In this document: positions 11,881 to 61,981 of the stretch, one piece after another
How the letters are laid out: each line of letters opens with the position of its first letter
Numbering within the stretch: the stretch's first letter is position 1
Assembly (NCBI RefSeq): GCF_018350175.1
Contig: NC_058368.1
Location: forward strand, 107,510,001-107,574,000
Direction of reading: 5' to 3'
DNA from: Felis catus
Taxonomy: Eukaryota
Length of the DNA stretch: 64,000 nt
The notes under the pieces: model-generated
What the model was told of the DNA's origin: nothing
What the model saw: only the letters and a program-made list of their open reading frames with translations
Database searches by the model: none
Position numbers and translations under genes: made by a program

Positions 11881-13660
11881 GTAATGGTGTTAAGTCTATA
11901 GATCAGTTATGAGAGATTTTAGTCTTGAATTTTTTATTTCATGAACAAGATGGTTTATCAGGAAAAGGCCAAAAACATCACCTTGCATAATTTTCTGGGT
12001 AATCATCCTCTTTTCTACACTGTTCAGGGAGTGCATGAAGTTCCTGTGCCAAAGACTAGGGAGCTGAGTGAAGCCATTTCCACCCCTCTTGCACATGCGC
12101 ACATGCACACTGATCCACGACAGTGAGCTAAGCAGTGCCACCTAGTGGAGAACAAAGCCAGTATACCAAGCTTTGCACAAATGCACCCTCCAAGCACATC
12201 CCCCAGAAGACCAGCACAAGTCCCTCCACCTGCTTAGTGTAGGGAATTTTGAGTGCTTCATAGTTTGACTTCTAGGGGAAACTGAATGTAACTACATTTG
12301 GGTGTCATTCTGTTTGCTGGCTCATTTATTTATTTCTTTTCTTTGCTTCTCTTTTTGCTTAAATCGTTTTCTTTTTTATTTTTCATTCTTGGATACGTAA
12401 AGAGAAAAATTGTTTTTTATTTTTATACTTAATTAAAAAAGTTTTATTCTATTTCATTTTCTTTATTTTATTTAACTCTATTATATAATTTTTTTAGTTT
12501 TAAAAATTGTTCTTTTTTTTTTCTTTCCTTTCCCTTTTTTCTCTATCCTAGCAGGCTTCTTTCAACAAGCAGACCAAAACACACCTAGGATCTAGCTTCC
12601 TTTATTTAATTTTTTTGTTTTGTTTTTAATTTTTAATTTATATTTTATTAATTTTTTTCCCTCCAAAATGACAAAATTAAGGAATTTAGCCCAAAAGAAA
12701 GAACAGGAAGAAATAGTAGTCAGGGGCTTAATCAACACAGGTATAAGTAAGATGTGTGAACTAGAATTTAGAACCACAATAATAAAAATACCAGATGGGT
12801 TTGAAAAAAGCATAGAATCATTTTCTGCAGAGATAAAAGAAGTAAAATCTAGTCAGGATGAAATTAAAAATGCTATAACTGAGAGGCAATCTCGAATGCA
12901 TTTCATGGCAGCAAGGATGGATGAAGCAGAGCATAGAACCAGCAATATAGAAGACAAAATTATGGAGAATCATGAAGAATAAAAGGAAACTAAGGCAAAA
13001 GAGAATGATATAAGAAGTAGAGAATTAAGTGACTCATTAAAAAGGAATATCATCCAAATCATAGGAGTACAAGAAGATGAAGAGAGAGAGAAAAAGGTTT
13101 ATGTGAGCAAATCATAGCAGAAAACTCCCCTAACCTGGGGAAAGACACAGGCATAAAAATCCAAGAAATAAAGAGAGCTCCCACTAGATTCAACAAAAAC
13201 CAACCATCAACAAGACATATCATAGTCAAATTCACAAAATACACAGACAAGGAATGAATTATTAAAGCAGCAAGGGGAAAAAACTCATTAACCTATAATG
13301 GAAGAAAGATTCCCAGCAGACCTATCCACAGAAACTTGGCATGCCAGAAAGGAGTGGCATAATGTGCTGAATCAGAACAAAATGCAGTCAAGAATTCATT
13401 ATCCTGCAAGGCTGTCATTCAAAAGAGGAGAGATAAAGAATTTCCCATAGCCCTGCAAGAAGTTTTAAGGTGGAGTTTGGGTGGAGAAAAAAGGAACAAA
13501 GCAAAAAACAACAAAATAACAAAGAAATGACTAGAAGGGACCAGAGAACATCACCAGAATCAAAGAAAGACTAGAAAGGACCAGAGAACATAACCAGTAA
13601 CACCAACTCTACAAGCAACACAATGGCGCTAAATTCATATCTTTCAGTACTCACTCTAAA

Positions 13661-13877
13661 ATTTTTTTAATGTGTATTTATTTTTGGGAGAGAGAGAGAA
13701 AGAGTCTCTCTGTGAGTGGGGGAGGAGAAGAGAAAGAGGGAGACACAGAGTCTGAAGCAGGCTCCAGGCTCTGAGCTATCAGCACATAGCCCGACGCAGG
13801 GCTCAAACCCACAAACCATGAGATCATGACCTGAGCTAAAGTCAAACGCTTAACCAACTGAGCCACCCAGGTGCCCC
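13661..13877 (-). mobile_element. CanSINE (SINEC_Fc-like) inserted at the start of L1 ORF2
   Basis: tRNA-derived head. TSD tttcagtactcactctaaa at 13642-13660 and 13879-13897. Confidence 0.95.
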
Positions 13878-15017
13878 ATTTCAGTACTCACTCTAAATGT
13901 CAATGGGCTAAACCCTCCAATGAAAAGACATAGGCATCAGAATGGATAACAAAACAAGACCTATCTATATGCTGCTTACATGAGACTCATTTTAGACCTA
14001 AAGACACCTGCAGATTGAAAGTAGGGAGATGGAGAACCATCTACCATGCTAATGCTTGTCAACAGAAAGCTGGAGTAGCCATACTTATATCAGACAAACT
14101 AGATTTTGAAATAGACTGTAACAAGAGATGAAGAAGGACGTTTTATCATAATTAAAGGGTGTATCCACCAAGAAGATCTAACAATTGTAAGTATATATGC
14201 CCCCAATATGAGGGACTCCAAATAATCACAAACATAAAGATCAATTAATCATAAACATAAACTCATTGATAATAATACCGTAATAGTAGGGGACTGCAGC
14301 ACCCCACTTATAACAATTGACAGATCATCTAAGCAGAAAATCAGTAATGAAGCAATGGCTTTGAATGACACACTGGACCAGATGGACTAACCAGATATAT
14401 TCAGAACATTTAATCCTAGAGCAGTAGAATACACATTCTTCTTGAGCGCACATGGAATATTCTCCAGAAAAATCACATAGTGGGACACAAATAAGCCCTC
14501 AACAGGTACAAAAAATTGAGATCATACCTTACATATTTTTAGACCACAATGCTATGAAACTAGAAATCAACCACAAGAAAAAATTTGGGCAGACCATGAA
14601 TACTTGGAGATTAAAGAAAATCCTTGTAAAGAATGAATGTATTAACCAGGAAATTAAAGAGCAAATTAAAATGTACATGAAAGTCAATGAAAATGATAAC
14701 ACTACAGCTGAAAACCTCTAGGGTACAGCAAAGGTGGTCATAAGAGGGAAGTATATAGCAATCCAGGCCTTCCTAAAGAAGGAAGAAAGGTCTCAAGTAT
14801 ACACACTAACCTTACACCTAAAAGAGCTATAAAAAAAAAAAAAGAACCAATAATGCCCTAAACCAGCAGAAGACGGGAAATAATAAAGATTAGGGCAGAA
14901 ATCAATGATATCGAACTCAAAAAATAGAACACATGAATAAAACCAGGGGCTGGTTCTTTGAAATAGTTAATTGATCAACCCACAGCCATATTGATCAAAA
15001 AGAAACAGGAAAGGACT

Positions 15018-15253
15018 GGGGTGCCTGGGTGGCTCAGTTGGTTAGGTGCCCGACTTCGGCCTAGGTCATGATCTCACCATTGGTGGGTTCAAGCCCTGCG
15101 TCAGGCTCTATGCTGACAGCTCAGAACCCAAAGCCTGCTTTGGATTCTGTGTCTCCCCCTCTCTCTCTCTCTGCCCCTCCCCTGCTGGTACTCTATTTCT
15201 GTCTCTCTCAAAAATAAATAACCATTAAAATTTGTTTTTAAAAAAGAAAGAAA
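15018..15253 (+). mobile_element. CanSINE inside L1 ORF2
   Basis: Head ggggtgcctgggtggctcag, (CT)n, A-tail. TSD aaaagaaacaggaaa(g/t)gac. Confidence 0.95.
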
Positions 15254-17737
15254 AAAAGAAACAGGAAATGACCCAAATAAATAAAACCGATAATAAAAGA
15301 GGAGAGATTACAGCCAACATTGCAGAAATACAAACAATAATAAGAAAATATTATGAACAATGATATGCCAACAAACTGTGCAGTCTCACAATCTGGAAGA
15401 AATGGACGACTTACTTGAAACATATAAACTACCAAAACTGAAACAGGAAGAAAGAAAATTTGAACAGCCCCATAATTCAGTAAAAACATTGAATCAGTAA
15501 TCAAAAATCTCCCAACATACAAGAGTCGGGGGCCAGATGGCTTTCCAGAGGAATTCTACCAAACATTTAAAGAAGAGTTATCACCTATTCTTTTGAAGCT
15601 CGTCCAAAAAGTGGAAATGGAAGGAAAACTTCCAAACTCATTCTATGAGACCAGCATGACCTTGATTCCAAAACCAGACAAAGACCCCCTTAAAAAGGAA
15701 AACTACAGACCAATTTCCCTGATGAACGTGGATGCAAAAATTCTCAGCAAGATACTAGCAAACTAGATTCAGCAATACTTTAAAAGAGTTATTCACCACA
15801 GTCAAGTGGGATTTATTACTGGGATGCAGGGCTAGTTCAGTATCTGCACATCAATCAATGTGATATATAACATTAATAAAAGAAAGGATAAGAACCAGAT
15901 GTTCATCTCAATAGATACTGAAAAAGTATTTGACAAAATACAGTATCATTTCTTGATAAAAACCCTCAAGAAAATAGGGATAGAAGGATCATACCTCAAG
16001 ATCATGAAGGCCATATACAAAGACCCACAAGTAATATCATCTGCAATGGGGAAGAACTGAGAGTTTTCCCCCTAAGGTCAGGAACACAAGGATGTCCACT
16101 CTCACCACTGTTACTCATCATAGTGTTGGAAGTCCTAGCCTCAGCAATCAGACAACACAAAGAAAAGGTATCCACATTGGTAAGGAGTAAATCAAATTTT
16201 CACTCTTCACATACGACATGATATTCCATATGGAAAACCCAAAAGATTCCACCAAGAAACTGCTAGAGCTGATCCATGAATTCACAAAGTTGCAGCGTAT
16301 AAAATCAGTGCACAGAAACTGGTTGCATTTCTATACACCAGTAATGAGGCAGCAGAAAGAGAAATCAAGGAATGAATCTCATTTACAATTACACCAAAAA
16401 TCATGAAATACTTAGGAATAAACCTAACCAAAGAGTTAAAAAATCATGAAAACTGTAGAATACTTATGAAAGAAATTAAGGAAGGCACACAAAAATGGAG
16501 AAAGATTCCATGCTCATGGAGTGGAAGAACAAGTATTGTTAAAATGTTGATACTCTATGAAGTAATCTACATATGCAATGCAACCCCTATCAAAATAACA
16601 CCCACATTCTTCACAGAGCTAGAAGTAATAGTCCTAAAATTTGTATCAAACCAGAAAAGACCCCGAATTGCCAATGGGATCCTGAAAAAGAAACCAAAGC
16701 TGGAGGCATCACAGTTCTGGACTTCAAGCTGTATTACGATGTGGTAATCATCAAGACAGTATAGCACTGCCACAGGAACAGACACACAGATCAGTGGAAC
16801 AGAATAGAAAACCCATAAATGCACCTACAAAAATATGGTGAACTCATGTTTGACCAAGCAAGAAAGAATATCCAATGGAAAAAAAAAAACGACAGTCTCT
16901 TCAGCAAATGATGTTGGGAAAATTGGACAGCAATTCAGAAGAATGAACCTGGACCACTTTCTTACACCATACACAAAAATAATGTCAAAATAGATGAAAG
17001 ACCTAAACATAAGACATCAGAATTCTGTAGGAGAAAGCAGGCAACAACTTCTTTGACCTCAGTCCAGCAACTTCTTACTTGACCTGTCTCTAGAGACCAG
17101 GGAAACAAAATCAAAAATGAACTATTGGGACCTCATCAAGATAAAAAACCTTCTGCTCAGTGAAGGAAACAACAGCAAAACTAAAAGGCAACTGACAGAA
17201 TGGGAGAAGATATTTGCAAATGACACATCAGATAGAGGGTTAGTATCCAAAATCTATAAAGAACTTGTCAAACTCAATACCTAAAAAACAAATAATCCAG
17301 TGAAGAAATGGGCAGAAGACATGAATAAATACTTGTCCAAAGAAGACATCCAGATGGCTCAATATTAGTCATCATCAGGGAAATACAGATCAAAACCACA
17401 ATGAGATACCACTTCACACTTGTCAGAATGGCTAAAATTAACAACTCAGGCAAACACACATGTTGGCAAGGATGCAGAGAAAAAGGAACCCTAATGCACT
17501 GTTCATGGGAATGCAAACTGGTGAAGCCACTCTGGAAAACAGTATGGAGTTTTCTCAAAAAATTAAAAATAGAACTACCCTATGACCCAGCAATTACACT
17601 ACTATGTATTTATCCAAAGGATACAAGAGTGCTGATTTGAAGGGGCACATCCACCCCAATGTTTATAGCTGTACTACTGACAAAGTATGGAAAGAGCACA
17701 AATGTCTGTTTACAGATAAATGGATAAAGCAGATGTG

Positions 17738-17739
<2 letters not shown>

Positions 17740-17785
<46 letters not shown>

Positions 17786-17871
17786 CACATGTGTATATAT
17801 ATACATATGTACATCTGTATATGTGTGTGTGTGTATATATGTGTGTATATATGTATATATATGTGTGTGTG

Positions 17872-17912
<41 letters not shown>
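17740..17912. repeat. Compound (TG)/(TA)/(CA) microsatellite
   Basis: Directly visible; expanded inside the L1 ORF2 3' end. Confidence 0.95.
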
Positions 17913-17915
<3 letters not shown>

Positions 17916-18242
17916 GAATGGAGTATTACTAGCCAATCGTGAAGAATTAAATCTTGCCATTTGCAACAACATAGATTATGATAAGCGAAATAATAAGTCA
18001 GAAAGAGAAAGACAAGTATCATATGATTTCACTCATATGTGGAATTTAAGAAACAAAACGTATGAACATAAGGTAAGAGAATTAAAAAAGATAAAGACAG
18101 AGAGGGAGACAAACCATAAGAGACTCTTAAATACATAGCCACCCATTTGGAAGGGGACAGTTGGAATATATATATATAGAATGAGACAGTTGACTAGGTA
18201 TTTCTTAATATCCCACTTTGCTTCAATATTGAAGTTTATTAT

Positions 18243-20295: not shown

Positions 20296-21080
20296 TTGTC
20301 TTAGTTTCCTCCAGAAGCTGACCCAGAGTCAAAGATTGAGGTGCAAGCAGTGTATTTGAGAAGTTGTAAGGACATTGGTAGGCTAGTGAGGAAGAGAAAC
20401 AGAAGGGGAACCAACCATGACGGAGCAACTGGAGCTAAATCGTGTAGGGAAACTCTGGAATATGATGCCTAACACACATCTCAGAATTGTACCTCCAATG
20501 GATACAGCATAGCCATGGCTGAAGAATTGCTCCCTGGTGGGTGTTAATTCTTTGTCTTCTGGTCTGGTCTGCTTCTGGGCAGAGCAACCATGACAGACTG
20601 TATTTTTCAAACATGACCACAGTGAGATTTCTCATCCTGCATGCTGTTCAAACGTTATGACTGTGACACTCTTCTCATCTGGATAAGGGATTTTTATGTA
20701 TCCTTTTCTTGAATTTGTGCATAATTATGGTCACAGTGGAAACAATGCTTTATGACTTCTAAGCCTAGATCATAAAAGGTGATACAACTTGTACTTGGTT
20801 CTTTTGGAATACTTTCACTTGGAACCTAAGTGTCATGCTGTGAGGAGGCCCATGGCTTCCTGTGGAGAAACCCAAATGGAGAAGAACAGGCCGCCAGCAT
20901 CAATATGCCAGCTATGTAAGTGAGCCATCTTGAAAGAGAATCCTCCACTTCTAGTAGAGCTATCCCACTTAACACTGCATGGAACATGATCTAATCCTGC
21001 CGAACCCTGCTCATTTTATTAAATGTAACAAAATAAGTGACTTTTGTTGAATCAAACCATTACTAATTTGGGGTGGCATT
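20296..21080 (+). mobile_element. Nested MaLR LTRs (an MLT1 LTR with an MLT1G/H-like LTR from ~20590 whose end resumes at 26302-26338)
   Basis: 'atgacttctaagcctagatcataaaagg...catgctgtgaggaggccc' motifs. The terminal 'aatagataattggtaca' lies beyond the L1. Strand refers to the inner LTR. Confidence 0.7.
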
Positions 21081-21082
21081 TT

Positions 21083-24000
21083 ATTTTAATTTATTTATTT
21101 TAATTTACATACATTAATTAGCATATAGTGCAATACTGATTCCCAGAGTAGGTTACAGCAATTCATCCCTTGTGTATAACACTGAGTGCTTATCCTAGCA
21201 AGTGTCTTTCTTAATGCCCCTTTACCATTTAGCCCATGTCCCCACCCACAACCCTCCAGCAACCCTCTGTTTGTTCTCTGAATTTAAGAGTCTCTTATGT
21301 TCTGTACCCCCTCCTTGTTTTTATATTACTTTTGCTTCCCTTCCCTTGTGTTCTTCTGTTTTGTATCTTAGATTCCTCATGTGAGTGATGTCATATGATA
21401 GTTGTCTTTCTCTGACTAATTTTGGTTAGCACAATACCCTCTCGTTCTAACCACATAATTACACAAGGCAAGATTTCACTCTTTGATTGCCGAGTAATAC
21501 TCCATTGTATATACATACCATGTTTTCTTTATCCATTCATCTGTTGATGGACATTTGGGCTCTTTCCAAACTTTGGCTATTGTAGATAGCACTGCTATAA
21601 ACACTGGGTGCATGTGCCCCTTTGAAACAGCACACCTGTATCCCTTGGATAAATACCTAGTAGTGTAATTCCTGGGTCATAGGGTAGTTCTATTTTTAAT
21701 TTGTGGGGGAACCTCCATACTGTTTTCCAGAGTGGCTTCACTAGTTTGCAACCCACCAGCATTGCAAAAGAGCTCCTCTTTCTCCTCATCCTCACTACCA
21801 TATGTGTTTGCCTGAGTTGTTAATTTTAGACATTCTGACTGTTGTGAAGGGGTATCTCATTGTGGTTTTGATTTGTATTTCCCTGAAAATCAGTGATGTG
21901 GAGCATTTTTTAATGTGTCTGTTAGATATTTGGATGTCTTCTTTGGAGAAGTGTCTATTCATGTCTTTTGCCCGTTTCTTCACTGGATTATTTGTTTCCT
22001 GGTGTTGAATTTGATAACTTCCTTATAGATTTTGGATACTCTTTATCTGATATGTCATTTACAAATATCTTCTCCTATTCTGTTGGTTGTCTTTTAGTTT
22101 TGCTGATTGTTTCCTTTGCTTTGCAGAAGGTTTTTATTTTGATGAGGTCCCAATAGTTCATTATTACTTTTGTTTCCCTTGCCTCCAGAGATGCGTTGAG
22201 TAAAAAATTGCTATGGCTGAGGTCAAAGAGGTTTTTGGCTGCTTTCTCCTCGAGGATTTTGATGGCTTCCTTTCTTACATTTAGGTCTTTCATCCATTTT
22301 GAGTTTTTTGTGTATGGTGTAAGAAAGTGGTCCAGGTTCATTTTTCTTCCTGTTGCTGTCCAGTTTCCCAGCACCATTTGCTGAAAAGACTGTCTTTTTT
22401 CCCATTGGATATTCTTTCCTACTTGGTTAAAGATGAGTTGGCCATACATTTGTAGGTCCATTTTTGGGTTTTCTATTCTGTTCCATTGATCTCTGTGTCT
22501 GTTCTTGTGGCATTGCTATACTGTCTTGATGATTACAGTTTTGTAATAAAGCTTTAAGTCTGGGACTGTGATACCTCCAGCTTTGGTCTTCTTTTTTAGG
22601 ACTGCTTTGGCTATTCGGAGTCTATTCTGGTTCCATACAAATTTTAGGGTTGTTCTAGCTCTATGAAGAATGCTGGTGTTATTTTGATAGGGATTGTGTT
22701 GAATATGTAGATTGCTTTGGGTAGTATTGACATTTTAACAATATTTGTTCTTATCCATGAGCATGGAATATTTTTCCATTTTCTTATTCTTCTTCAATTT
22801 CTTTCATAAGCTTTCTATAGTTTTCAGTGTATAGATTATTCAGCTATTTGGTTGGGTGTATTCTTAGGTATTTTATGGGTTTTGGTACAATTGTAAATGG
22901 GATCGATTCCTTGATTTCTCTTTCTGTTCCTTCATTTTTGGTATATAGGAATGCAACCGATTTCTCTGCATTGATTTTATACTCTGCAACTTTGCTGAAT
23001 TCATGGATCAGTTCTGCCAGTTTTTTGGGGAATCTTTTGGGTTTTCCATATAGACTATCATTTCACCTGTGAAGAGAAAAAGTTTGACTTCCTCCTTGGT
23101 GATTTGGATGCCTTTTATTCCTTTGTATTGTCTGACTGCTGAGGCTAAGACTTCCAATACTATGTTGAATAACAGTGGCGAGAGTGGACGTCCCTGTCAT
23201 GTTCCTGACCTTAGGGGGAAAGCTCTCAGTTTTTCCCCATTGAGGATGATTATTAGCCGTGGGTCTTTGATATACGGTTTTTATGATCTTAGGGTATGAT
23301 CCTTCTATCCCTACATTCCTGAGGGTTTTTATCAAGAAAGGATGCTGTGTTTTGTCAAATGCTTTCTCTGCATCTTTTGAGAGGATCATGTGGTTCTTAT
23401 CCTTTCTTTTCTTGGTGTAAGGTATCACATTGATTGTTTTGCAGATATTGAACCAGCCCTGTGTCCCAGGAATAAATCCCACTTGGTCGTGGTGAATAAT
23501 TCTTTTAATGTATCATTGGATCCAGTTGGCTAGTATCTTTTTGAGGATTTTTGCATCCATGTTCATCAGGGAAATTGGTCTGTAGTTCTCCTTTTTAAGG
23601 GGGTCTCTGTCTGGTTTTGGAATCAACGCCAATGCTGGTGTCATAAAATGAGTTTGGAAGTTTTCCTTCCATTTCTATTTTTTGGCTCAGATTCAAAAGA
23701 GGAAGTGTTAACTCTTCTTTAAATGTTTAGTAGAATTCCTCTAGAAAGCTATCTGGCCCTGGACTCTTGCTTTTTGGGAGATATTTTATTAGTAATTTGA
23801 TTTCTTTATGGGTTATGGATCTGTGTCAATTTTCTATTTCTTCTTGTTTCAGTTTTGGTAGTTTATATGTTTCTAGGAACTTTCCCATTTCTTCCAGATT
23901 GCCCTTTTTATTGGTATGCAACTGCTGATAGTATTCTCTTACTATTGTTTGTATTTCTGCCGTGTTGGTTGTGATCTCTCCTCTTTCATTCTTGATTTTA

Positions 24001-26301
24001 TTTATTTGGGTCCTTTCCTTTTTCTTTTTGATAAAACTGGCTAGGGGATTATCAATTTTGTTAATTATTTCAAAGAACCAGCTCCTGGTTTCATTGATCT
24101 GTTCTTTTTTTTTTTTTTTTTTTTTTGGTTTTGATATCTTCGATTTCTGCTCTAATCTATTATTTTCCATCTTCTGGTTTTCATTATTTGCTGTTCTTGT
24201 TCCAGTTCTTTAAGGTGTAAGGTCAGGTTGCCTATCTGAGACCTTTCTTTCTTCCTTTAGGAAGGCCTGAATTGTTATATACTTCCCTCTTATGAGCACC
24301 TTTGCTGTGTCCCAGAGGTTTGGGGCTGTGGTGTTATCATTTTCATTGGTTTCCATATACTTTTTAATTTCCTCTTTAACTTCTTGGTTGGCTCATTCAT
24401 TTTTTAGTAGGATGTTCTTTTGTCTCCAAGTATTTGTTGTCTTCGCAAATTTTTTCTTATTGATTTAGAGTTTCATGGCACTGTGGTCTAAAAATATGCA
24501 AATTATGATCTTGATCTTTTTGTACTTGTTGAGGGCTGATTTGTGTCCCAGTATGTGATCTATTCTGGAGAATATTCCATATGCACTCTAGAAGAATGTG
24601 TATTTTGCTTTAGGATGAAATGTTCTGAATACATCTGTTAAGTCCATTCGGTCTAGTGTGTTATTCAAAACTATTGTTTTCTTGTTGACTTTCTGTTTAG
24701 ATGATCTGTCCATTGCTGTAAGTGGGGTACCATAATACCTACAATTATGGTATTGTTATCAATGAGTTTCTGCATATTTGTGATTAAGTCATTTATATAT
24801 TTGGGCATTTCCATGTTTGGAGCATAAATGTTTACAATTGTTAGTTCTTGGTGGATAGACCCCTTAATTATTATATAATGCCCTTCTTCATCTCTTGTTA
24901 AAGTCTTTATTTATAAGTCTAGATTGTCTGATATAAGTACAGCTACTCTGGCATTGTTTGGCAACCATTAGCATGTTAGATGGTTCTCCATCCCCTTACT
25001 TTCAGTCTGAAGGTGTCTTTAGGTCTACAGTGGGTCTCTTGTAAACAGCATATAGATGGATCTTGTTTGCTTATCCATTCTGTTACCCTATGTCTTTTGT
25101 TTGGAGCATTTAATCCTTTGACATTTAGAGTGAGTACTGAAAGATAAGAATTTATTGCCATTATGTTGTCTTTAGATCTGGAGTTTCTGGTGGTGTTTTC
25201 TGTCCTTTCTAGTCTTTGTTGCTTTTGGTCTTGTTTTGTTTTTGTTTTTTGTTTTATTATTTTTTTTGTCTTTTCTCCCCTCAGAGAGTCCCCCTTAAAA
25301 TTTCTTGCAGGGCTGGCTTAGTCATCACAAACTCCTTTAGTTTTTCTTTGTCTGCGAAACTTTTTATCTCTCCTTCTATTTTGAATGACAGCCTCGCAAG
25401 ATATTGAATTCTTGACTGCATGTTTTTCAAATACAGCACATTGAATATATCCTGCCACTCCTTTATGGACTGACAATTTTCTGTGGCTAGGTCTGCTGTG
25501 AACCTTATCTGTCTTCCCTTGTATATTAAGGACTTTTTTTCCCCTTGCTACTTTCATAATTCTTTCCTTGTCTGAGTATTTTGTGAATTTGACTATGATA
25601 TGCCTTATTGATGGTCAGTTGTTGTTGAAACTAATGGTAGTTCTCTATGCTTCTTGGATTTTTTATGTCTGTGTCTTTCCCCAGGTTAGGAAAATTTTCT
25701 GCTATGATTGGCTCACATAAACCTTCTATCCATTTTTCTCTCTCTTCATCTTCTGGGACCCCTATTATTCGGATGTTATTCCTTTTTAATGAGTCATTGA
25801 GTTCTCTAATTCTTATATTGTGCTCTTTTGCTTTACTTTCCCTCTTTTTTTCTGCTTCATTATTCTCCATAAGTTTGTCTTCTATATTACTAATTTGCTG
25901 TTCTGCTCATCCATCCTTGCTGCTGTGGCATTCATTCGAGATTGCATCTCAGTTATAGCATTTTTAATTTCATCCTGACTAGATTTTACTTCTTTTATGT
26001 CCTTAGAAAGCGATTTTATGCTTTTTTCAACCCCAGCTAGTAGTCTTATTATTGTGATTCTAAATTCTGGTTCAGACATCTTGCTTGTAGCTGTGTTGAT
26101 TAAGTCCCTGGCTGTCATTTCTTCCTCTTCTTTCTTTTTAGGTCAATTACTGCTGAGTTCTGTGCTTCAAGTTGTGCAGACTGTTGTGTTAATCCTCAAA
26201 TCAGTTTTCTACGTGTGCAAGATGCTTTGGTGTTGATCTAGCTGCATTTAAGGGAAGAGAGAGGCAGAAAAACTTACTCGCTGCTCTGCCATCTTCACCC
26301 C
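21083..26301 (-). mobile_element. Carnivoran L1 with intact 5' terminus but most of the 5'UTR and the ORF1 start missing (candidate spliced L1, SpIRE)
   Basis: 5' end ggggtgaagatggcagagcag at 26301. After 152 nt it joins ORF1 (…KKEEEEMTARDLINT). Full decayed ORF2, 3'UTR and A-tail at ~21083. Degenerate TSD tggggtggcatttt / tggactggctttt. Confidence 0.92.
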
Positions 26302-26439
26302 TGGACTGGCTTTTTAGCTAACAATAGATAATTGGTACACTTTTTTTCTGTACCAGCTACCATGAGTGGCACCTAAGTTCTCCCCTTGAAACCATCACAT
26401 GAACCTTTGTAACTGCCGTAACCATATATTTGAATTGAG

Positions 26440-27523: not shown

Positions 27524-28434
27524 ATCCTGGGAAGATGGCAGTGTAGGAGGACGCTGGGCTCACCGCACGTCCTGCTGATCACTTAGATTCCACCTACACC
27601 TGCCTAAATAACCCAGAAAACCACCAAAGACTAGCAGAACGGAGTCTCTGGAGCCAAGCGCAGACGAGAGGCCCACAGAAGAGGGTAGGAAGGGCGGCGA
27701 GGTGGTGCGCACTCCACGGACTGGCGGGAGGGAGCTGGGGTGGAGGGGCGGCCCGCCGGCCAAGCAGAGCCCCTGAGTCTGGCTTGCAAAAGCGGAGGGG
27801 CCGGACGGAGTGTGTTCCGACAGCAAGCGGGACTTGACATCTGGAAGGTTATAAGCTAACAGCTCTGCTCGGAGAACTGGAGGGCTGGAGGACAACGGGA
27901 GGGAGAGTTGTTGAGCCCTGGACGACAGAGCTCAGCTTGGTGCTCGCCAGCGCCATCTCCCTCTCCCATTCCCCAGCCAAAATCCCAAAGGGAACCAGTT
28001 CCTGCCAGGGAGCTTGCTTGCACCGTGCAAACACCCATCGCTGTGCTTGTGCGGATCCATCCCTCCAGCGTCGGGTGTGACTCCCTCCCGGTGCCGCAGG
28101 GCCCCTCCCAAAGCTGATCACCGAAGGATAAGCAAGCTAAGCCTGCCCCTCCTGCCCCTGTGTACCTTGCCGATCCACCCCAGCTAATATGCCAGATCCC
28201 CAGCACCACAAGCCTGGCAGGGTGCAAGTAGCCCAGACGGGCCACGCCACCCCACAGTGAATCCCGCCCCTAGGAGAGGGGAAGAGAAGGTACACACCAG
28301 TCTGACTGTGGCCCCAGCAGTGGGCTGGGGGCAGACATCAGGTCTGACTGCAGCCCCGCCCACCAACGCAAGTTATTCAAGACAGCACAGGGGAAGTGCT
28401 CCACAGTCCCACACCACTCCAGGGACTATCCAGA
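27524..28434 (+). promoter_or_regulatory. L1 5'UTR internal Pol II promoter region (CpG-rich)
   Basis: Most CpG-rich segment of the window. AAGATGGC YY1-type motif near the 5' end. Confidence 0.7.
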
Positions 28435-29326
28435 ATGACCAAACAGAAGAATTCCCCTCAGAAAAACGTCCAGGAAATAACAACAGCTAACGAACTGATC
28501 AAAAATGATTTAAACAATATAACAGAAAGTGAATTTAGAATAATAGTCATAAAATTAATCGCTGGGCTTGAAAACAGTATAAAGGGCAGCAGAGAATCTT
28601 GCTACAGAGATCAAGGGACTAAGGAACAGCCAGGAGGAGCTAAAAAATGCTATCAATGAACTGCAAAATAAAATGGAGACAACTACAGCTCAGATTGAAG
28701 AGGCAGAGGAGAGAATAGGTGAACTAGAAGATAAAATTATGGAAAAAGAAAAAGCTGAGAAAAAGAGAGATAAAAAAATCCAGGAGTATGAGGGGAAAAT
28801 TAGAGAACTAAGTGATGGACTAAAGTGAAATAATATACGCATAATTGGTATTCCAGAGGAGGAAGAGAGAGGGAAAGGTGCTGAAGGGGTACTTGAAGAA
28901 ATAATAGCTGAGAACTTCCCAGATCTGGGGAAGGAAGAAGGCACTGAAATCCAAGAGGCACAGAGAACTCCCTTCAGATGTAACTTGAATCGATCTTCTG
29001 CACGACATATCATAGTGAAACTGGCAAAATACAAGGATGAAGAGAAAATTCTGAAAGCAGCTAGAGATAAACATGCTCTGACATATAAAGGGAGACCTAT
29101 AAGACTCGTGACCGATCTCTCTACTGAAACTTGGCAGGCCAGAAAGGAATGGCAGGAGATCTTCAATGTGATGAACAGAAAAAATATGCAGCCAACATTC
29201 CTTTATCCAGCAAGTCTGTCATTTAGAATAGAAGGAGAGATAAAGGTCTTCCCAAACAAACAAAAACTGAAGGAATTCATCACCACTAAACCAGCCCTAC
29301 AAGAGATCCTAAGGGGGATCCTGTGA
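28435..29326 (+). pseudogene. L1 ORF1p (RNA-binding), disrupted
   Basis: MTKQKNSPQKNVQE... ARHIIVKL, YPASLSF, KPALQEIL. Frameshift near 28600 and a TGA near 28826. Confidence 0.93.
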
Positions 29327-29376
29327 GACAAAGTACCAGAGACATGGCTACAAGCATGAAACCTACGCACATCACA

Positions 29377-32300
29377 ATGACTCTAAACCCATATCTTTCT
29401 ATAATAACACTGAATGTAAACGGACTAAATGCGCCAACCAAAAGACATAGGGTATCAGAATGGATAAAAAAACAAGACCCATCTATTTTCTGTCTACAAG
29501 AGACTCATTTTAGACCTGAGGACAACTTCAGATTGAGAGTGAGGAGATGGAGAACTATTTATCATGCCACTGGAAGTCAAAAGAAAGCTGGAGTAGTCAT
29601 ACTTATATCAGACAAACTAGACTTTAAATTAAAGGCTGTAACAAGAGATGAAGAGGGCATTATATAATAATCACAGGGTCTATCCATCAGGAAAAGCTAA
29701 CAATTATAAATGTCTATGCGCTGAATACGGGAGCCCCAAATATATAAAACAATTACTCACAAACATAAGCAACCTTATTGATAAGAATGTGGTAATTGCA
29801 GGGGACTTTAACACCCCACTTACAGAAATGGATAGATCATCTAGACACACAGTCAATAAAGAAACAAGGGCCCTGAATGATACATTGGATCAGATGGACC
29901 TGACAGATGTATTTAGAACTCTGCAACTCAAAGCAACAGAATATACTTTCTTCTTGAGTGCACATGGAACATTCTCCAAGATAGATCACATACTGGGTCA
30001 CAAAACAGCCCTTCATAAGTATACAAGAATTGAAATCATACCATGCATACTTTCAGACCACAATGCTATGAAGCTTGAAATCAACCATAGGAAAAAGTCT
30101 GGAAAACCTCCAAAAGCATGGAGGTTAAAGAACACCCTACTAAAGAATGAGTGGGTCAACCAGGCAATTAGAGAAGAAATTAAAAAATATATGGAAACAA
30201 ACGAAAATGAAAATACAACAATCCAAACGCTTTGGGATGCAGCGAAGGCAGTCCTGAGAGGAAAATACATTGCAATCCAGGCCTATATCAAGAAACAAGA
30301 AAAATCCCCAATACAAAATCTAACAGCACACCTAAAGGAAATAGAAGCAGAACAACAAAGACAGCCTAAATCGAGCAGAAGAAGAGAAATAATAAAGATC
30401 AGAGCAGAAATAAACAATATAGAACCTAAAAAAACTGTAGAGCAGATCAATGAAACCAAGAGCTGTTTTTTTGAAAAAATAAACAAAATTGATAAACCTC
30501 TAGCCAGGCTTCTCAAAAAGAAAAGGGAGATGACCCAAATAGATAAAATCATGAATGAAAATGGAATTATTATAACCAATCCCTCAGAGATACAAGCAAT
30601 TATCAGGGAATACTATGAAAAATTATATGCCAACAAACCGGACAACCTGGAAGAAATGGACAAATTCCTAAACACCCACACATGTCCCAAACTCAATCAG
30701 GAGGAAATAGAAAGCTTGAGCAGACCCATAACCAGTGAAGAAATTGAATCAGTCATCAAAAATCTCCCAACATATAAGAGTCCAGGACCAGATGGCTTCC
30801 CAGGGGAGTTCTACCAGACGTTTAAAGCAATGATAATACCTATCCTTCTCAAGCTATTCCAAAAAATAGAAAGCAAAGGAAAACTTCCAGACTCATTCTA
30901 TGAAGCCAGTATTACTTTGATTCCTAAACCAGACAGAGACCCAGTAAAAAAAGAGAACTACAGGCCAATATCCCTGATGAATATGGATGCAAAAATTCTC
31001 AATAAGATACTAGCAAATCGAATTCAACAGCATATAAAAAGAATTATTCACCATGATGAAGTGGGATTCATTCCTGGGATGCAGGACTGGTTCAACATTT
31101 GCAAATCAATCATTGTGATACATCACATTAATAAAAGAAAAGATAAGAACCATATGATCCTGTCAATCAATGCAGAAAAGGCCTTTGACAAAATTCAGAA
31201 CCCTTTCTTAATAAAAACCCTTGAGAAAGTCGGGATAGAAGGAACATACTTAAAGATCATAAAAGCCATTTATGAAAAGCCCACAGCTAACATCATCCTC
31301 AGTGGGGAAAAACTGAGAGCTTTTTCCCTGAGATCAGGAACACCACAGGGATGTCCACTCTCACCCGCTGTTGTTTAACATAGTGTTGGAAGTTCTAGCA
31401 TCAGTAATGAGACAACAAAAGGAAATCAAAGGCATCCAAATTGGCAAAGATAAAGTTAAGCTTTCACTTTTTGCAGATGACATGATATTATCCATGGAAA
31501 ATCTGATAGACTCCACCAAAAGTCTGCTAGAACTGATACATGAATTTAGCAAAGTTGCAGGATGCAAAATCAATGTACAGAAATCAGTTGCATTCTTATA
31601 CACTAATAATGAAGCAACAGAAAGACAAACTGATCCCATTCACAATTGCACCAAGAAGCATAAAATACCTAGGAATAAATCTAACCAAAGATGTAAAGGA
31701 TCTGTATGCTGAAAACTATAGAAAGCTTACCAAGGAAATTGAAGAAGATATAAAGAAATGGAAAAACATTCCAGCTCATGGATTGGAAGAATAAATATTG
31801 TCAAAATGTCAATACTACCCAAAGCTATCTACACATTCAATGCAATCCCAATCAAAATTGCACCAGTATTCTTCTCGAAACTAGAACAAGCAATCCTAAA
31901 ATTCATATGGAACCACAAAAGGCCCCGAATAGCCAAAGCAATTTTGAAGAAGACCAAAGGGGGAGGCATCACAATCCCAGACTTTAGCCTCTACTACAAA
32001 GCTGTAATCATCAAGACAGCATGGTATTGACACAAAAACACAAAAAGACCAATGGAATAGAATAGAAACCCCAAAACTAGACCCACAAACATATGGCCAA
32101 CTAATCTTTGACAAAGCAGGAAAGAATATCCAATGGAAAAAAAGTCTCTTTAACAAATGGTGCTGGGAGAACTGGACAGCAACATGCAGAAGGTTGAAAC
32201 TAGACCACTTTCTCACACCATTCACAAAAATAAACTCAAAATGGATAAAGGACCTGAATGTGAGACAGGAAACCATCCAAACCCTAGAGGAGAAAGCAGG

Positions 32301-33183
32301 AAAAGACCTCTCTGACCTCAGCCGTAGCAATGTCTTACTTGACACATCCCCAAAGGCAAGGGAATTAAAAGCAAAAATGAACTGCTGGGACCTTATGAAG
32401 ATAAAAAGCTTCTGCACAGCAAAGGAAACAACCAACAAAACTAAAAGGCAACCAACAGAATGGGAAAAGATATTTGCAAATGACATATGGGACAAAGGGC
32501 TAGTATCCAAAATCTATAAAGAGCTCACCAAACTCCACACCCGAAAAACAAATAACCCAGTGAAGAAATGGGCAGAAAACATGAATAGACACTTCTCTAA
32601 AGAAGACATCCAGATGGCCAACAGGCACATGAAAAGATGCTCAACGTCGCTCCTCATCAGGGATATACAAATCAAAACCACACTCAGATACCACCTCACG
32701 CTAGTCAGAGTGGCCAAAATGAACAAATCAGGAGACTCTAGATGCTGGAGAGGATGTGGAGAAACGGGAACCCTCTTGCACTGTTGGTGGGAATGCAAAT
32801 TGGTGCAGCCACTCTGGAAAACAGTGTGGAGGTTCCTCAAAAAATTAAAAATAGACCTACCCTATGACCCAGCAATAGCACTGCTAGGAATCTACCCAAG
32901 GGATACAGGAGTACTGATGCCTAGGGACACTTGTACCCCAATGTTTATAGCAGCACTCTCAACAGTAGCCAAATTATGGAAAGAGCCTAAATGTCCATCA
33001 GCTGATGAATGGATAAAGAAACTGTGGTTTATATACACAATGGAGTACTATGTGGCAATGAGAAAGAATAAAATATGCCCCTTTGTAGCAACATGGATGG
33101 AACTGGAGAGTGTGATGCTAAGTGAAATAAGCCATACAGAGAAAGACAGATACCATATGTTTTCACTCTTATGTGGATCCTGA
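29377..33183 (+). pseudogene. L1 ORF2p (EN/RT), disrupted
   Basis: MTLNPYLSIITLNVNGLN, CLQETH, GDFNTPL, SDHN, YRPISL, QGCPLSP, FADDM and the C-terminal HCWWEC. Several frameshifts and stops (~29660, ~29735, ~31365, ~31630, ~31770, ~32028). Confidence 0.95.
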
Positions 33184-34444
33184 GAAACTTAACAGAAACC
33201 CATGGGGGAGGGGAAGGAAAGAAAAAAAGAGGTTAGAGTGGGAGAGAGCCAAAGCATAAGAGACTGTTAAAAACTGAGAACAAACTGAGGGTTGATGGGG
33301 GGTGGGAGGGAGGAGAGGGTGGGTGATGGGTATTGAGGAGGGCACCTTTTGGGATGAGCACTGGGTGTTGTATGGAAACCAATTTGACAATAAACTTCAT
33401 ATATTGAAAAAAAAAGAAGATTGAGCATACTAAGTATTGTTGCAGATGTGAATAAATGGGCCCTCTCATACACTACTAGAAGGAATGTAAAATGGTGTAG
33501 CCATTTTGGAAAATAGTTTGGAAGTTTTCAAAGAAAAATGAAAGCATATGGCCATACAAAGATTTGTATTTTAAATGTTCGTATCAACTATCTATGTAAT
33601 AATCACAACTGAGGAAATGTCAATGTCCATCAACATGTGAGTGGGTAAACAAAGTGGCATATCCTTATATACTCTTCAGCAGTAAAAACAAACAAAATAT
33701 GAATACACGTTACATACAACTTAACTGGATTTCAGAATAATTATGCTGAGTGAAAGAAGTCAGCCCCCAAAAAACTACACACTGTGTGATTCCATGTATT
33801 TAAATTCTAGGGAATGCACATTTTATGTTTGGTGACAGAAAGCAAATCTGTGGTTGCCTGGGGCTGGTGGTGGGGATAACAAAGATTATAATTGCATACA
33901 CGGAAACATTAGGGATGATAGATATATCGATGGTTTTTACACTCTTCTTTTTAATTTTTTTTTAATTTGAGTATAGTTGACACAATGTTAACATTGTTAG
34001 CTGTAGGTGTACACTACAGTCACTCACCATTTGTATGCATTCTGCCATGCTTGTCACAATTGGAGCTATCATCTGTCACCATACAACACTATTACTATAC
34101 CAATGACTAGATTCTTTATACTATGCCTTTTATTTTCATGACTTATTCATTTTATAATTTGAAGAGTGTATCTTTCCCAATCCTACACTCATTTTGTTTA
34201 TCCCCTCACCTCTCTCCCTTCTGGTAACCATCAGGTTGTTCCTTTTATTTATAAGTCTGATTCTTTTTGTTTGTTTATTTGTTTATTCATTTGTTTTGTT
34301 TTTTAGATTCCATGTATATGTGAAATCATATGGTATTTGTCTTTTTCCATCTTTTTTCATTTAGCATAATATTCTCTAGGTCCATCCATACATCCATGTT
34401 GTCACAAATGGCAAGATCTCATCTTTTTTAATGGCTTCATACTA

Positions 34445-35302: not shown

Positions 35303-35556
35303 GGGGGGTGCCTGGGTGGCGCAGTCGGTTGAGCGTCCGACTTTAGCCAGGTCACGATCTCGCAGTCCATGAGTTCGAGCCCCGCGTCAGGCTCTGGGCT
35401 GATGGCTCAGAGCCTGGAGCCTGTTTCCGATTCTGTGTCTCCCTCTCTCTCTGCCCCTCCCCCGTTCATGCTCTGTCTCTCTCTGTCCCAAAAATAAATA
35501 AACTTTGAAAAAAAAAATCTTAAAAAAAAAAAAAATAAATAAATAAATAAATAAAT
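35303..35556 (+). mobile_element. Young SINEC_Fc
   Basis: CpG-rich near-consensus body, (TAAA)n tail. TSD aaatgcacctga at 35291-35302 and 35557-35568. Confidence 0.97.
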
Positions 35557-54652: not shown

Positions 54653-54918
54653 AATATTTGTTCAGTCTTTTTTTTTCCCCAAAATATCTTATAGGAATTC
54701 TATTTGAAATTGCATTAAATTCCTTTATTAATATCAGTAGAGAATTCATACTTTTGTGACTTTAAGTCTTCTTATCTAAGAATATGATGAGTCTCTGTCT
54801 AAACCTTGTTTTATAATTTTTTTTAATTTGTATTTTTCTTTAGATAGCTCCATTGTCTTAATAATATAATAATATTTAATAACGTTTTCCTAATTCTCTT
54901 ACATTCTAGGTCATTCTT

Positions 54919-55149
54919 TTTTTATTTATTTTTTTATTTTTTTTTTCAACGTTTATTTATTTTTGGGACAGAGAGAGACAGAGCATGAACGGGGGAGGGG
55001 CAGAGAGAGAGGGAGTCACAGAATCTGAAACAGGCTCCAGGCTCTGAGCCATCAGCCCAGAGCCTGACGCGGGGCTCGAACTCCCGGACCGCGAGATCGT
55101 GACCTGGCTGAAGTCGGACGCTTAACCGACTGCGCCACCCAGGCGCCCC
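54919..55149 (-). mobile_element. Young SINEC_Fc
   Basis: Near-consensus, CpGs intact. TSD acattctaggtcattctt at 54901-54918 and 55150-55167. Confidence 0.97.
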
Positions 55150-56662: not shown

Positions 56663-56890
56663 GGGGCGCCTGGGTGGCGCAGTCGGTTAAGCGTTCGACT
56701 TCAGCCAGGTCACGATCTCACGGTCCAGGAGTTCGAGCCCCGCGTCGGGCTCTGGGCTGATGGCTCAGAGCCTGGAGCCTGTTTTGGATTCTGTGTCTCC
56801 CTCTCTCTCTGCCCCTCCCCCATTCATGCTCTGTCTCTCTCTGTCCCAAAAATAAATAAACGTTGAAAAAAAAATTAAAAAAAAAAGAAA
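56663..56890 (+). mobile_element. Young SINEC_Fc
   Basis: Near-consensus body and A-tail. Confidence 0.97.
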
Positions 56891-57141
56891 AAAGAAAAAT
56901 AGGTATGACCTTTCTCATATACTCAAGTTCATGAAGCAGAATTATATACCTGCATTCGTTATTAACACTACTTAAGCTAGCAGATTCAGCCAGCTCAGAT
57001 CCTAACCTTGACCCCTCTGCTGCTAAGCCAGAGTTTGTCCATTTTTTTATAAAACACCCTGACCATGTCCACAGCTGCATATGTACAGCTATATACACAC
57101 ACTTTATCACTAATACCACATTATTTTTGAATAAATTTTCT

Positions 57142-61679: not shown

Positions 61680-61738
61680 CTTAGGAAAAATTTTAAATGA
61701 AAATTTGACCTTATATATTAGAGTGAAAATGTTTTCTT

Positions 61739-61981
61739 TTTTTTTTTTTCCTTTTTATTTTTTTTAATATTTTTTTCAACTTTTTTATTTATTTTTGGGA
61801 CAGAGAGAGACAGAGCATGAACGGGGGAGGGGCAGAGAGAGAGGGAGACACAGAATCGGAAACAGGCTCCAGGCTCTGAGCCATCAGCCCAGAGCCCGAC
61901 GCGGGGCTCGAACTCACGGACCGCGAGATCGTGACCTGGCTGAAGTCGGACGCTTAACCGACTGCGCCACCCAGGCGCCCC
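61739..61981 (-). mobile_element. Very young SINEC_Fc
   Basis: Consensus-like with all CpGs and a long tail. TSD gaaaatgttttctt at 61725-61738 and 61982-61995. Confidence 0.97.

Follow-up and report, generated by a model that had tools for sequence, protein, structure and literature searches.

We conclude that the L1 element starting at position 26301 on the minus strand of the window (the whole stretch of 64,000 nucleotides of Felis catus DNA analyzed here, positions 107,510,001 to 107,574,000 of NC_058368.1) is most probably a retrocopy of an L1 RNA spliced from the 5′UTR into ORF1, that is, a SpIRE; we put the probability of this reading at about 0.85. A copy made from spliced RNA is likely because the missing segment extends exactly from a GT to an AG and because the same join is present in other copies. 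The first-pass annotation had proposed this origin, and both the GT...AG ends and the recurrence of the junction support it. The element has the layout of a 5′UTR/ORF1 SpIRE, with the first 14 nt of ORF1 absent and an in-frame ATG remaining at 26118–26116. The hallmarks of retrotransposition are all present, namely a true 5′ end, an A-tail, a target-site duplication (TSD) and an endonuclease-like site.

Structure and age of the element

The element extends from 26301 to approximately 21084 on the minus strand and is full-length save for one junction. Its first letters at 26301 (minus strand) read GGGGTGAAGATGG. In three DNA runs (X1, X11 and X14), the contig depth outside the element is that of a single copy, starting at 26310, and the alignment of one paralogous contig (X1 record 8) reaches 26302. 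We therefore regard 26301 as the true 5′ end of the family, in agreement with the earlier claim. The degenerate TSD claimed at the same time was also recovered. Its 5′ copy (26302–26316) opens with an A-run compatible with an L1 endonuclease site, and its 3′ copy lies at 21069–21083. The two are identical at 12 of 15 positions (26316–26302 against 21083–21069), a match equaled or bettered at 31 of 2000 random window positions; the TSD is weak and above chance.

All parts of the element are on the minus strand. Exon 1, defined from family contigs and reads, consists of the first 152 nt of the L1 5′UTR (26150–26301) and ends in CAG at the donor position. It is followed at 26149–26150 by the junction. 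ORF1 (25281–26149) lacks its first 14 nt and its start codon, and its translation is broken by stops and frameshifts; the first in-frame ATG past the junction (26116–26118) is ORF1 codon 16. At 26117 this ATG is altered in about 9–11% of the contig depth, and most of the family depth retains it. The Pfam L1 RBD-like domain (PF02994) was recognized in ORF1 at 25637–25906 with an E-value of 5.6e-05. The first ORF1 piece matched four Pfam families, every match being below the curated cut-offs, and these four matches are generic coiled-coil; a Pfam search with the ORF1 piece of the copy at 12668 returned no match. ORF2 covers its whole extent (21368–25161, ends approximate) in a decayed state, with fragments resembling reverse transcriptase and endonuclease recognized by eye. 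The remaining segment (21084–21367) contains the 3′UTR and a degenerate A-rich tail and aligns to the 3′ end of the copy at 27525.

From 26149 onward, the element is collinear with the window L1 copies at 12668 and 28436. Its largest gap against the 28436 copy is at most 38 nt; where the alignment with the 12668 copy opens large gaps, that copy contains extra sequence, and comparison with the window copies revealed no second large gap in the element. In ORF2, it differs from its closest relative in the window by 13.1% over 1789 ungapped columns, or ∼6.5% per copy, which indicates that the element is old. An uncalibrated estimate would place its age at tens of millions of years. The element is no longer active, and nothing points to a role in the host.

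Two further features of the 5′UTR were noted. A GTAAGT at nt 25–30 (26272–26277, minus strand) is absent from the few family contigs aligned there and is probably a chance mutation. Rescue of ORF1 by an ATG at nt 10 was considered for the window copy and rejected: this ATG has a strong context and, read through the junction (26292–26150, minus strand), shares the reading frame of ORF1, but stops at nt 52, 91 and 133 intervene and close the frame. One of these stops is private, and no family change was seen at the other two among the rows listed.

The window contains other repeats. A full-length L1 of another family (27525–33320, plus strand) has a GC/CpG-rich 5′UTR of about 910 nt, an ORF1 ATG at 28436 and ORF2 open stretches of 578 and 391 codons, and differs from the 26301 element by 17% in ORF2. 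The related L1 at 12668–18140 (plus strand) is interrupted at 13642, 15014 and 17743 by insertions of ∼237, 256 and 167 nt, respectively, the first two of which match a SINE-like repeat that occurs many times in the window. Four SINE-like copies (35305–35555, 54914–55149, 56663–56902 and 61736–61981) are 92–95% alike and much younger than the other window copies.

The junction and the ends of the missing segment

Family members were compared over 26030–26420 at 80% likeness in four of the 24 listed runs: contigs were used for the three DNA runs and reads for one oligo-dT RNA run (X24). The records aligned were 2537 (X1), 2538 (X11) and 2320 (X14) contigs, and 4140 X24 reads from about 2% of that run. 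The runs derive from two organisms that carry the locus at 90–96% of its words, with no caniform among them. The splice had been suggested to exist in carnivoran L1; the suggestion holds for the runs of these two organisms, and its carnivoran-wide scope exceeds what was shown.

Identity with the 12668 copy is 2–4 of 10 in the six 10-nt windows before 26149 and 6–9 of 10 in the ten windows after it, and the partner of 26149 is 12682, which is the last base of the fifth ORF1 codon in that copy. This step confirms that 152 nt of 5′UTR are joined to ORF1 at about codon 5, as first described; from the contigs and the alignment, the junction connects 5′UTR nt 152 to the third base of codon 5.

On the donor side, at least 51, 55 and 46 contigs in the three DNA runs, together with 159 RNA reads, diverge at 26150 into CAG/GTAC (the slash marking the boundary). 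On the acceptor side, the corresponding numbers are at least 26, 30 and 31 for contigs and 803 for RNA reads; these diverge behind 26148 into the ORF1 start, which reads AAG/GAAT in unjoined copies. Since the unjoined family reads CAG/GTAC on the left and AAG/G on the right, the lost segment is GT...AG, as expected by the first-pass annotation if splicing had occurred; GT and AG are at the exact ends in all three DNA runs and in the single RNA run. The textbook splice donor consensus is MAG/GTRAGT. The donor fits 7 of its 9 positions (counted by eye).

The acceptor region of the unjoined related L1 used for comparison (12594–12700, plus strand) contains a T-rich, AG-free stretch of 84 nt (12596–12679), the ORF1 ATG at 12668 and, as the first AG past that stretch, the AG at 12680–12681. 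The site had been called a typical acceptor. It is so in being the first AG after the tract; it is less typical in being an AAG and in being separated from the upstream pyrimidine tract by ∼16 purine-rich nt.

Neither the window copy nor either of the two listed paralogues has a gap at the join. At the first base past it (26149), the window copy has one substitution, a T where the family has a G on both unjoined sides. No contig in the three DNA runs links the donor and acceptor sides in one unjoined element. A search of the 64-kb window for the donor-side motif, allowing up to 3 mismatches, found no occurrence, so neither the 12668 nor the 27525 copy can be used as a parent, and the window holds no unjoined full-length copy of the element's family. 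The 27525 copy also has a different, GC-rich leader, which gives no alignment to the 152-nt head. By what was seen, the missing intron is at least ∼130 nt, and it is probably far longer.

Searches with the family head in other collections gave chance matches only. The long pattern found 0, 1 and 0 loci in the viral, metagenome and prokaryote collections, the one locus (L001) being a bacterial contig, and shorter patterns found 1 and 95 loci in those collections. Alignment of the 97 pattern loci to the family head produced only short, chance-level matches (best 36.8 bits), and the plasmid collection contained no match to the head.

The same junction in other copies

Among the 24 contig pieces listed of 7395, which were inspected for the junction, two span it without gaps. 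X1 record 3 (26109–26249) has 23 differences in 141 positions and a depth of 22, compared to 20.6 for unique flank; X14 record 20 (26057–26187) has 19 differences in 131 positions and a depth of 30, compared to 14.7. These paralogues are 84–85% identical to the window copy. An unjoined copy would mismatch 29 of the 38 head-side (exon) bases under X14 record 20, and the unjoined donor continuation fits only 10 of 30 bases under X1 record 3 (by eye). Because the unjoined continuation fits so poorly, we regard both as real joined copies, and the junction therefore exists elsewhere than at this locus, as the splicing proposal anticipated.

If the distance-to-end column is measured from whichever end of the aligned piece is closer, which is our decoding of it, X14 record 20 would carry the family G at 26149 and thus be a clean splice product. 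By the same decoding, X1 record 3 would depart from the family at 26139, 26149 and 26165 and agree with it at four other sites, and a further joined piece in the DNA runs would reach from 26128 to at least 26202. There are probably three joined paralogues besides the window locus. In the three DNA runs, 26149 has a summed depth equal to 1.3%, 0.8% and 1.9% of the value for 26157 (9–13 single-copy units), where depth is not equivalent to copy number and the numerator includes the window locus and some overhanging unjoined pieces. The junction-spanning contigs are 132–144 nt long and end short of the flanks, so that independent insertions, old duplications or one re-copied source would all be compatible with them.

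RNA reads across the junction

In X24, 51 reads cover 26149, of which 50, from ∼34 starts, carry the family G. The direction that usually means L1 sense accounts for 42 of the 51. Relative to the reads at 26157, junction reads amount to 42/141 in the sense-type direction and 9/93 in the opposite direction, and the sense-direction share (42/141) compares with 1–2% in DNA. The ORF1 of the element is A-rich (45% A), and the excess may be explained by oligo-dT priming within an A-rich ORF1 or by one expressed joined copy. Since either could account for it, the excess gives only a hint of present-day splicing at this junction in cat RNA.

Two other properties of the X24 reads were observed. On the ORF1 start (26030–26148), reads run about 8–9 to 1 in the usual L1-antisense direction, perhaps because oligo-dT primed on the A-rich antisense tract that unjoined copies contain. 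Particular letters at 26229 and 26245 make up 6–15% of the DNA contig depth and about 35–65% of the X24 reads, and this enrichment indicates that only some of the loci, or a single subfamily, gave rise to the RNA reads.

Origin of the junction

The spliced-RNA origin would involve the following steps. A full-length source RNA would have been spliced in cis between the donor past nt 152 and the AAG in codon 5 of ORF1, with the host spliceosome as the presumed agent cutting the L1 RNA at both sites, and most of the 5′UTR and the start of ORF1 would have been removed. Judging from the human case, the product could encode ORF2p, but its ORF1p could at most be a form that begins at codon 16 and lacks the basic N-terminus; by the same analogy, ORF1p was probably borrowed in trans. 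Insertion by ordinary target-primed reverse transcription is supported by the tail, the TSD and the endonuclease-like site. Decay of ∼6.5% per copy would have followed insertion, and the T at 26149 would be a later substitution or one made during reverse transcription.

A related question is whether the joined copies form a small re-amplified L1 lineage, in which the 152-nt head would retain enough promoter, ORF1p would be 15 residues shorter or supplied in trans, and splicing at these sites may continue in cat RNA to the present. The hints in this direction are a junction share well above that of the human 5′UTR/ORF1 class, one paralogue that may have three rare letters in common with the window copy, and the sense-biased RNA excess; we think such a lineage unlikely.

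The best-surviving rival is a single deletion by AGG microhomology, through a template jump of the reverse transcriptase or DNA repair, which would have produced a shortened source that was then re-copied or duplicated, the GT...AG ends being coincidental. AGG is common to both ends of the missing segment, so the join can also be read as a 3-nt microhomology join, and one event would be enough if the joined copies have a common source. Consistent with such a source, X1 record 3 and the window copy both seem to depart from the family at 26139, 26149 and 26165, to judge from the decoded letters; sharing at 3 of 7 testable sites would arise by chance in about 1–3% of cases at 7–10% divergence. 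Against this, X14 record 20 seems to have the family G at all three of the sites that in record 3 are either without it or uninformative (the letters at 26139 and 26149 being decoded), and the splice consensus itself predicts AG/G at both ends.

The coincidence that this deletion demands was gauged with 210000 random deletions in the full-length L1 at 27525, scored for GT...AG in any register; as this L1 belongs to another family, the resulting figures serve as guide values. GT...AG ends occurred in 1507 of the 210000 deletions (0.7%) and in only 287 of the 12468 in which the microhomology was 3 nt or longer (2.3%), and a donor of 7/9 or better occurred in none of the 210000. We thus consider a microhomology deletion improbable.

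A chimera, in which trans-splicing or template switching united the 152-nt head of one L1 RNA or family with the ORF1 body of another, is more improbable still. Trans-spliced mRNA/L1 chimeras have been proposed in human (PMC13174262), no unjoined element linking head and ORF1 was seen, and the 12668 copy has no donor-side motif. However, the head and ORF1 sides are both high-copy, at similar depth and in the same genomes, 5′ truncation would explain the 12668 copy, and cis-splicing is the simpler route. Deletion after insertion, private to this locus, could draw on the age of the element and on the T for G at the join as a repair scar, and is largely refuted by the gap-free, identical junction in at least two diverged contigs.

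Comparison with known spliced L1 elements

The leader of the present family is a carnivoran one, which we take to be unrelated to the primate L1 leader. In the searchable literature, SpIREs have so far been described for primate L1 only. We found no carnivoran spliced L1 retrocopy there, although subscription papers or Repbase/Dfam notes may record one, and the word SpIRE does not occur in the accessible portion of a 2026 review of canine retrotransposons (PMC13756887). The cat element would offer a second lineage for testing whether spliced copies are dead ends and whether the N-terminus of ORF1p is needed. That an AAG acceptor again lies in a basic ORF1 start suggests that a self-limiting splice recurs where the T-rich end of a leader precedes a lysine/arginine-rich start of ORF1. 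As a caution, spliced copies are included in the building of cat repeat consensus sequences and in counts of full-length L1s.

The closest counterpart is human SpIRE97/976, the 5′UTR/ORF1 class of Larson et al. 2018 (PMC5860796), who cite work by Belancio et al. 2006/2008. Both have an early GT donor in the 5′UTR and an AAG acceptor within ORF1 (at lysine 22 in human), both have lost the ORF1 start codon and keep a downstream in-frame ATG, and in both the remainder is complete with tail and TSD and several genomic copies exist. The donor lies past nt 152 here and past nt 97 in human, and the acceptor is in codon 5 rather than codon 22, so that a start at the following ATG would shorten the protein by only 15 residues, compared to 34 or 90 in human. 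The same paper reports that SpIRE97/976 RNA is immobile in cis and requires ORF1p in trans, and that a weak promoter and a non-functional ORF1p have been demonstrated (PMC5860796); the basic N-terminus is required by human ORF1p and is reportedly conserved in mammals (PMC5940361). SpIRE97/976 accounts for 11 copies among 6609 full-length L1PA1-6 elements (0.17%) in PMC5860796, compared to a rough depth share of ∼1–2% of 5′-bearing copies here, depth not being copy number. Unlike SpIRE97/976, the cat element belongs to an old family with a carnivoran leader.

The human intra-5′UTR SpIREs 97/622 and 97/790 are likewise spliced L1 RNAs retrotransposed with normal hallmarks, and human SpIREs make up ∼2% of full-length copies in all (PMC5860796). 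Their ORF1 is intact and they are capable of one move in cis, whereas the 26301 element has lost the start of ORF1. In the case of RAP1GDS1/L1PA2 (PMC13174262), a SpIRE was revived by a host promoter, and a spliced copy can thus seed more copies; unlike that case, no host exon lies upstream of the head of the 26301 element, for which re-copying is only a possibility. The probable spliced retrocopy described here has the known human 5′UTR/ORF1 architecture, in a carnivoran L1 leader.
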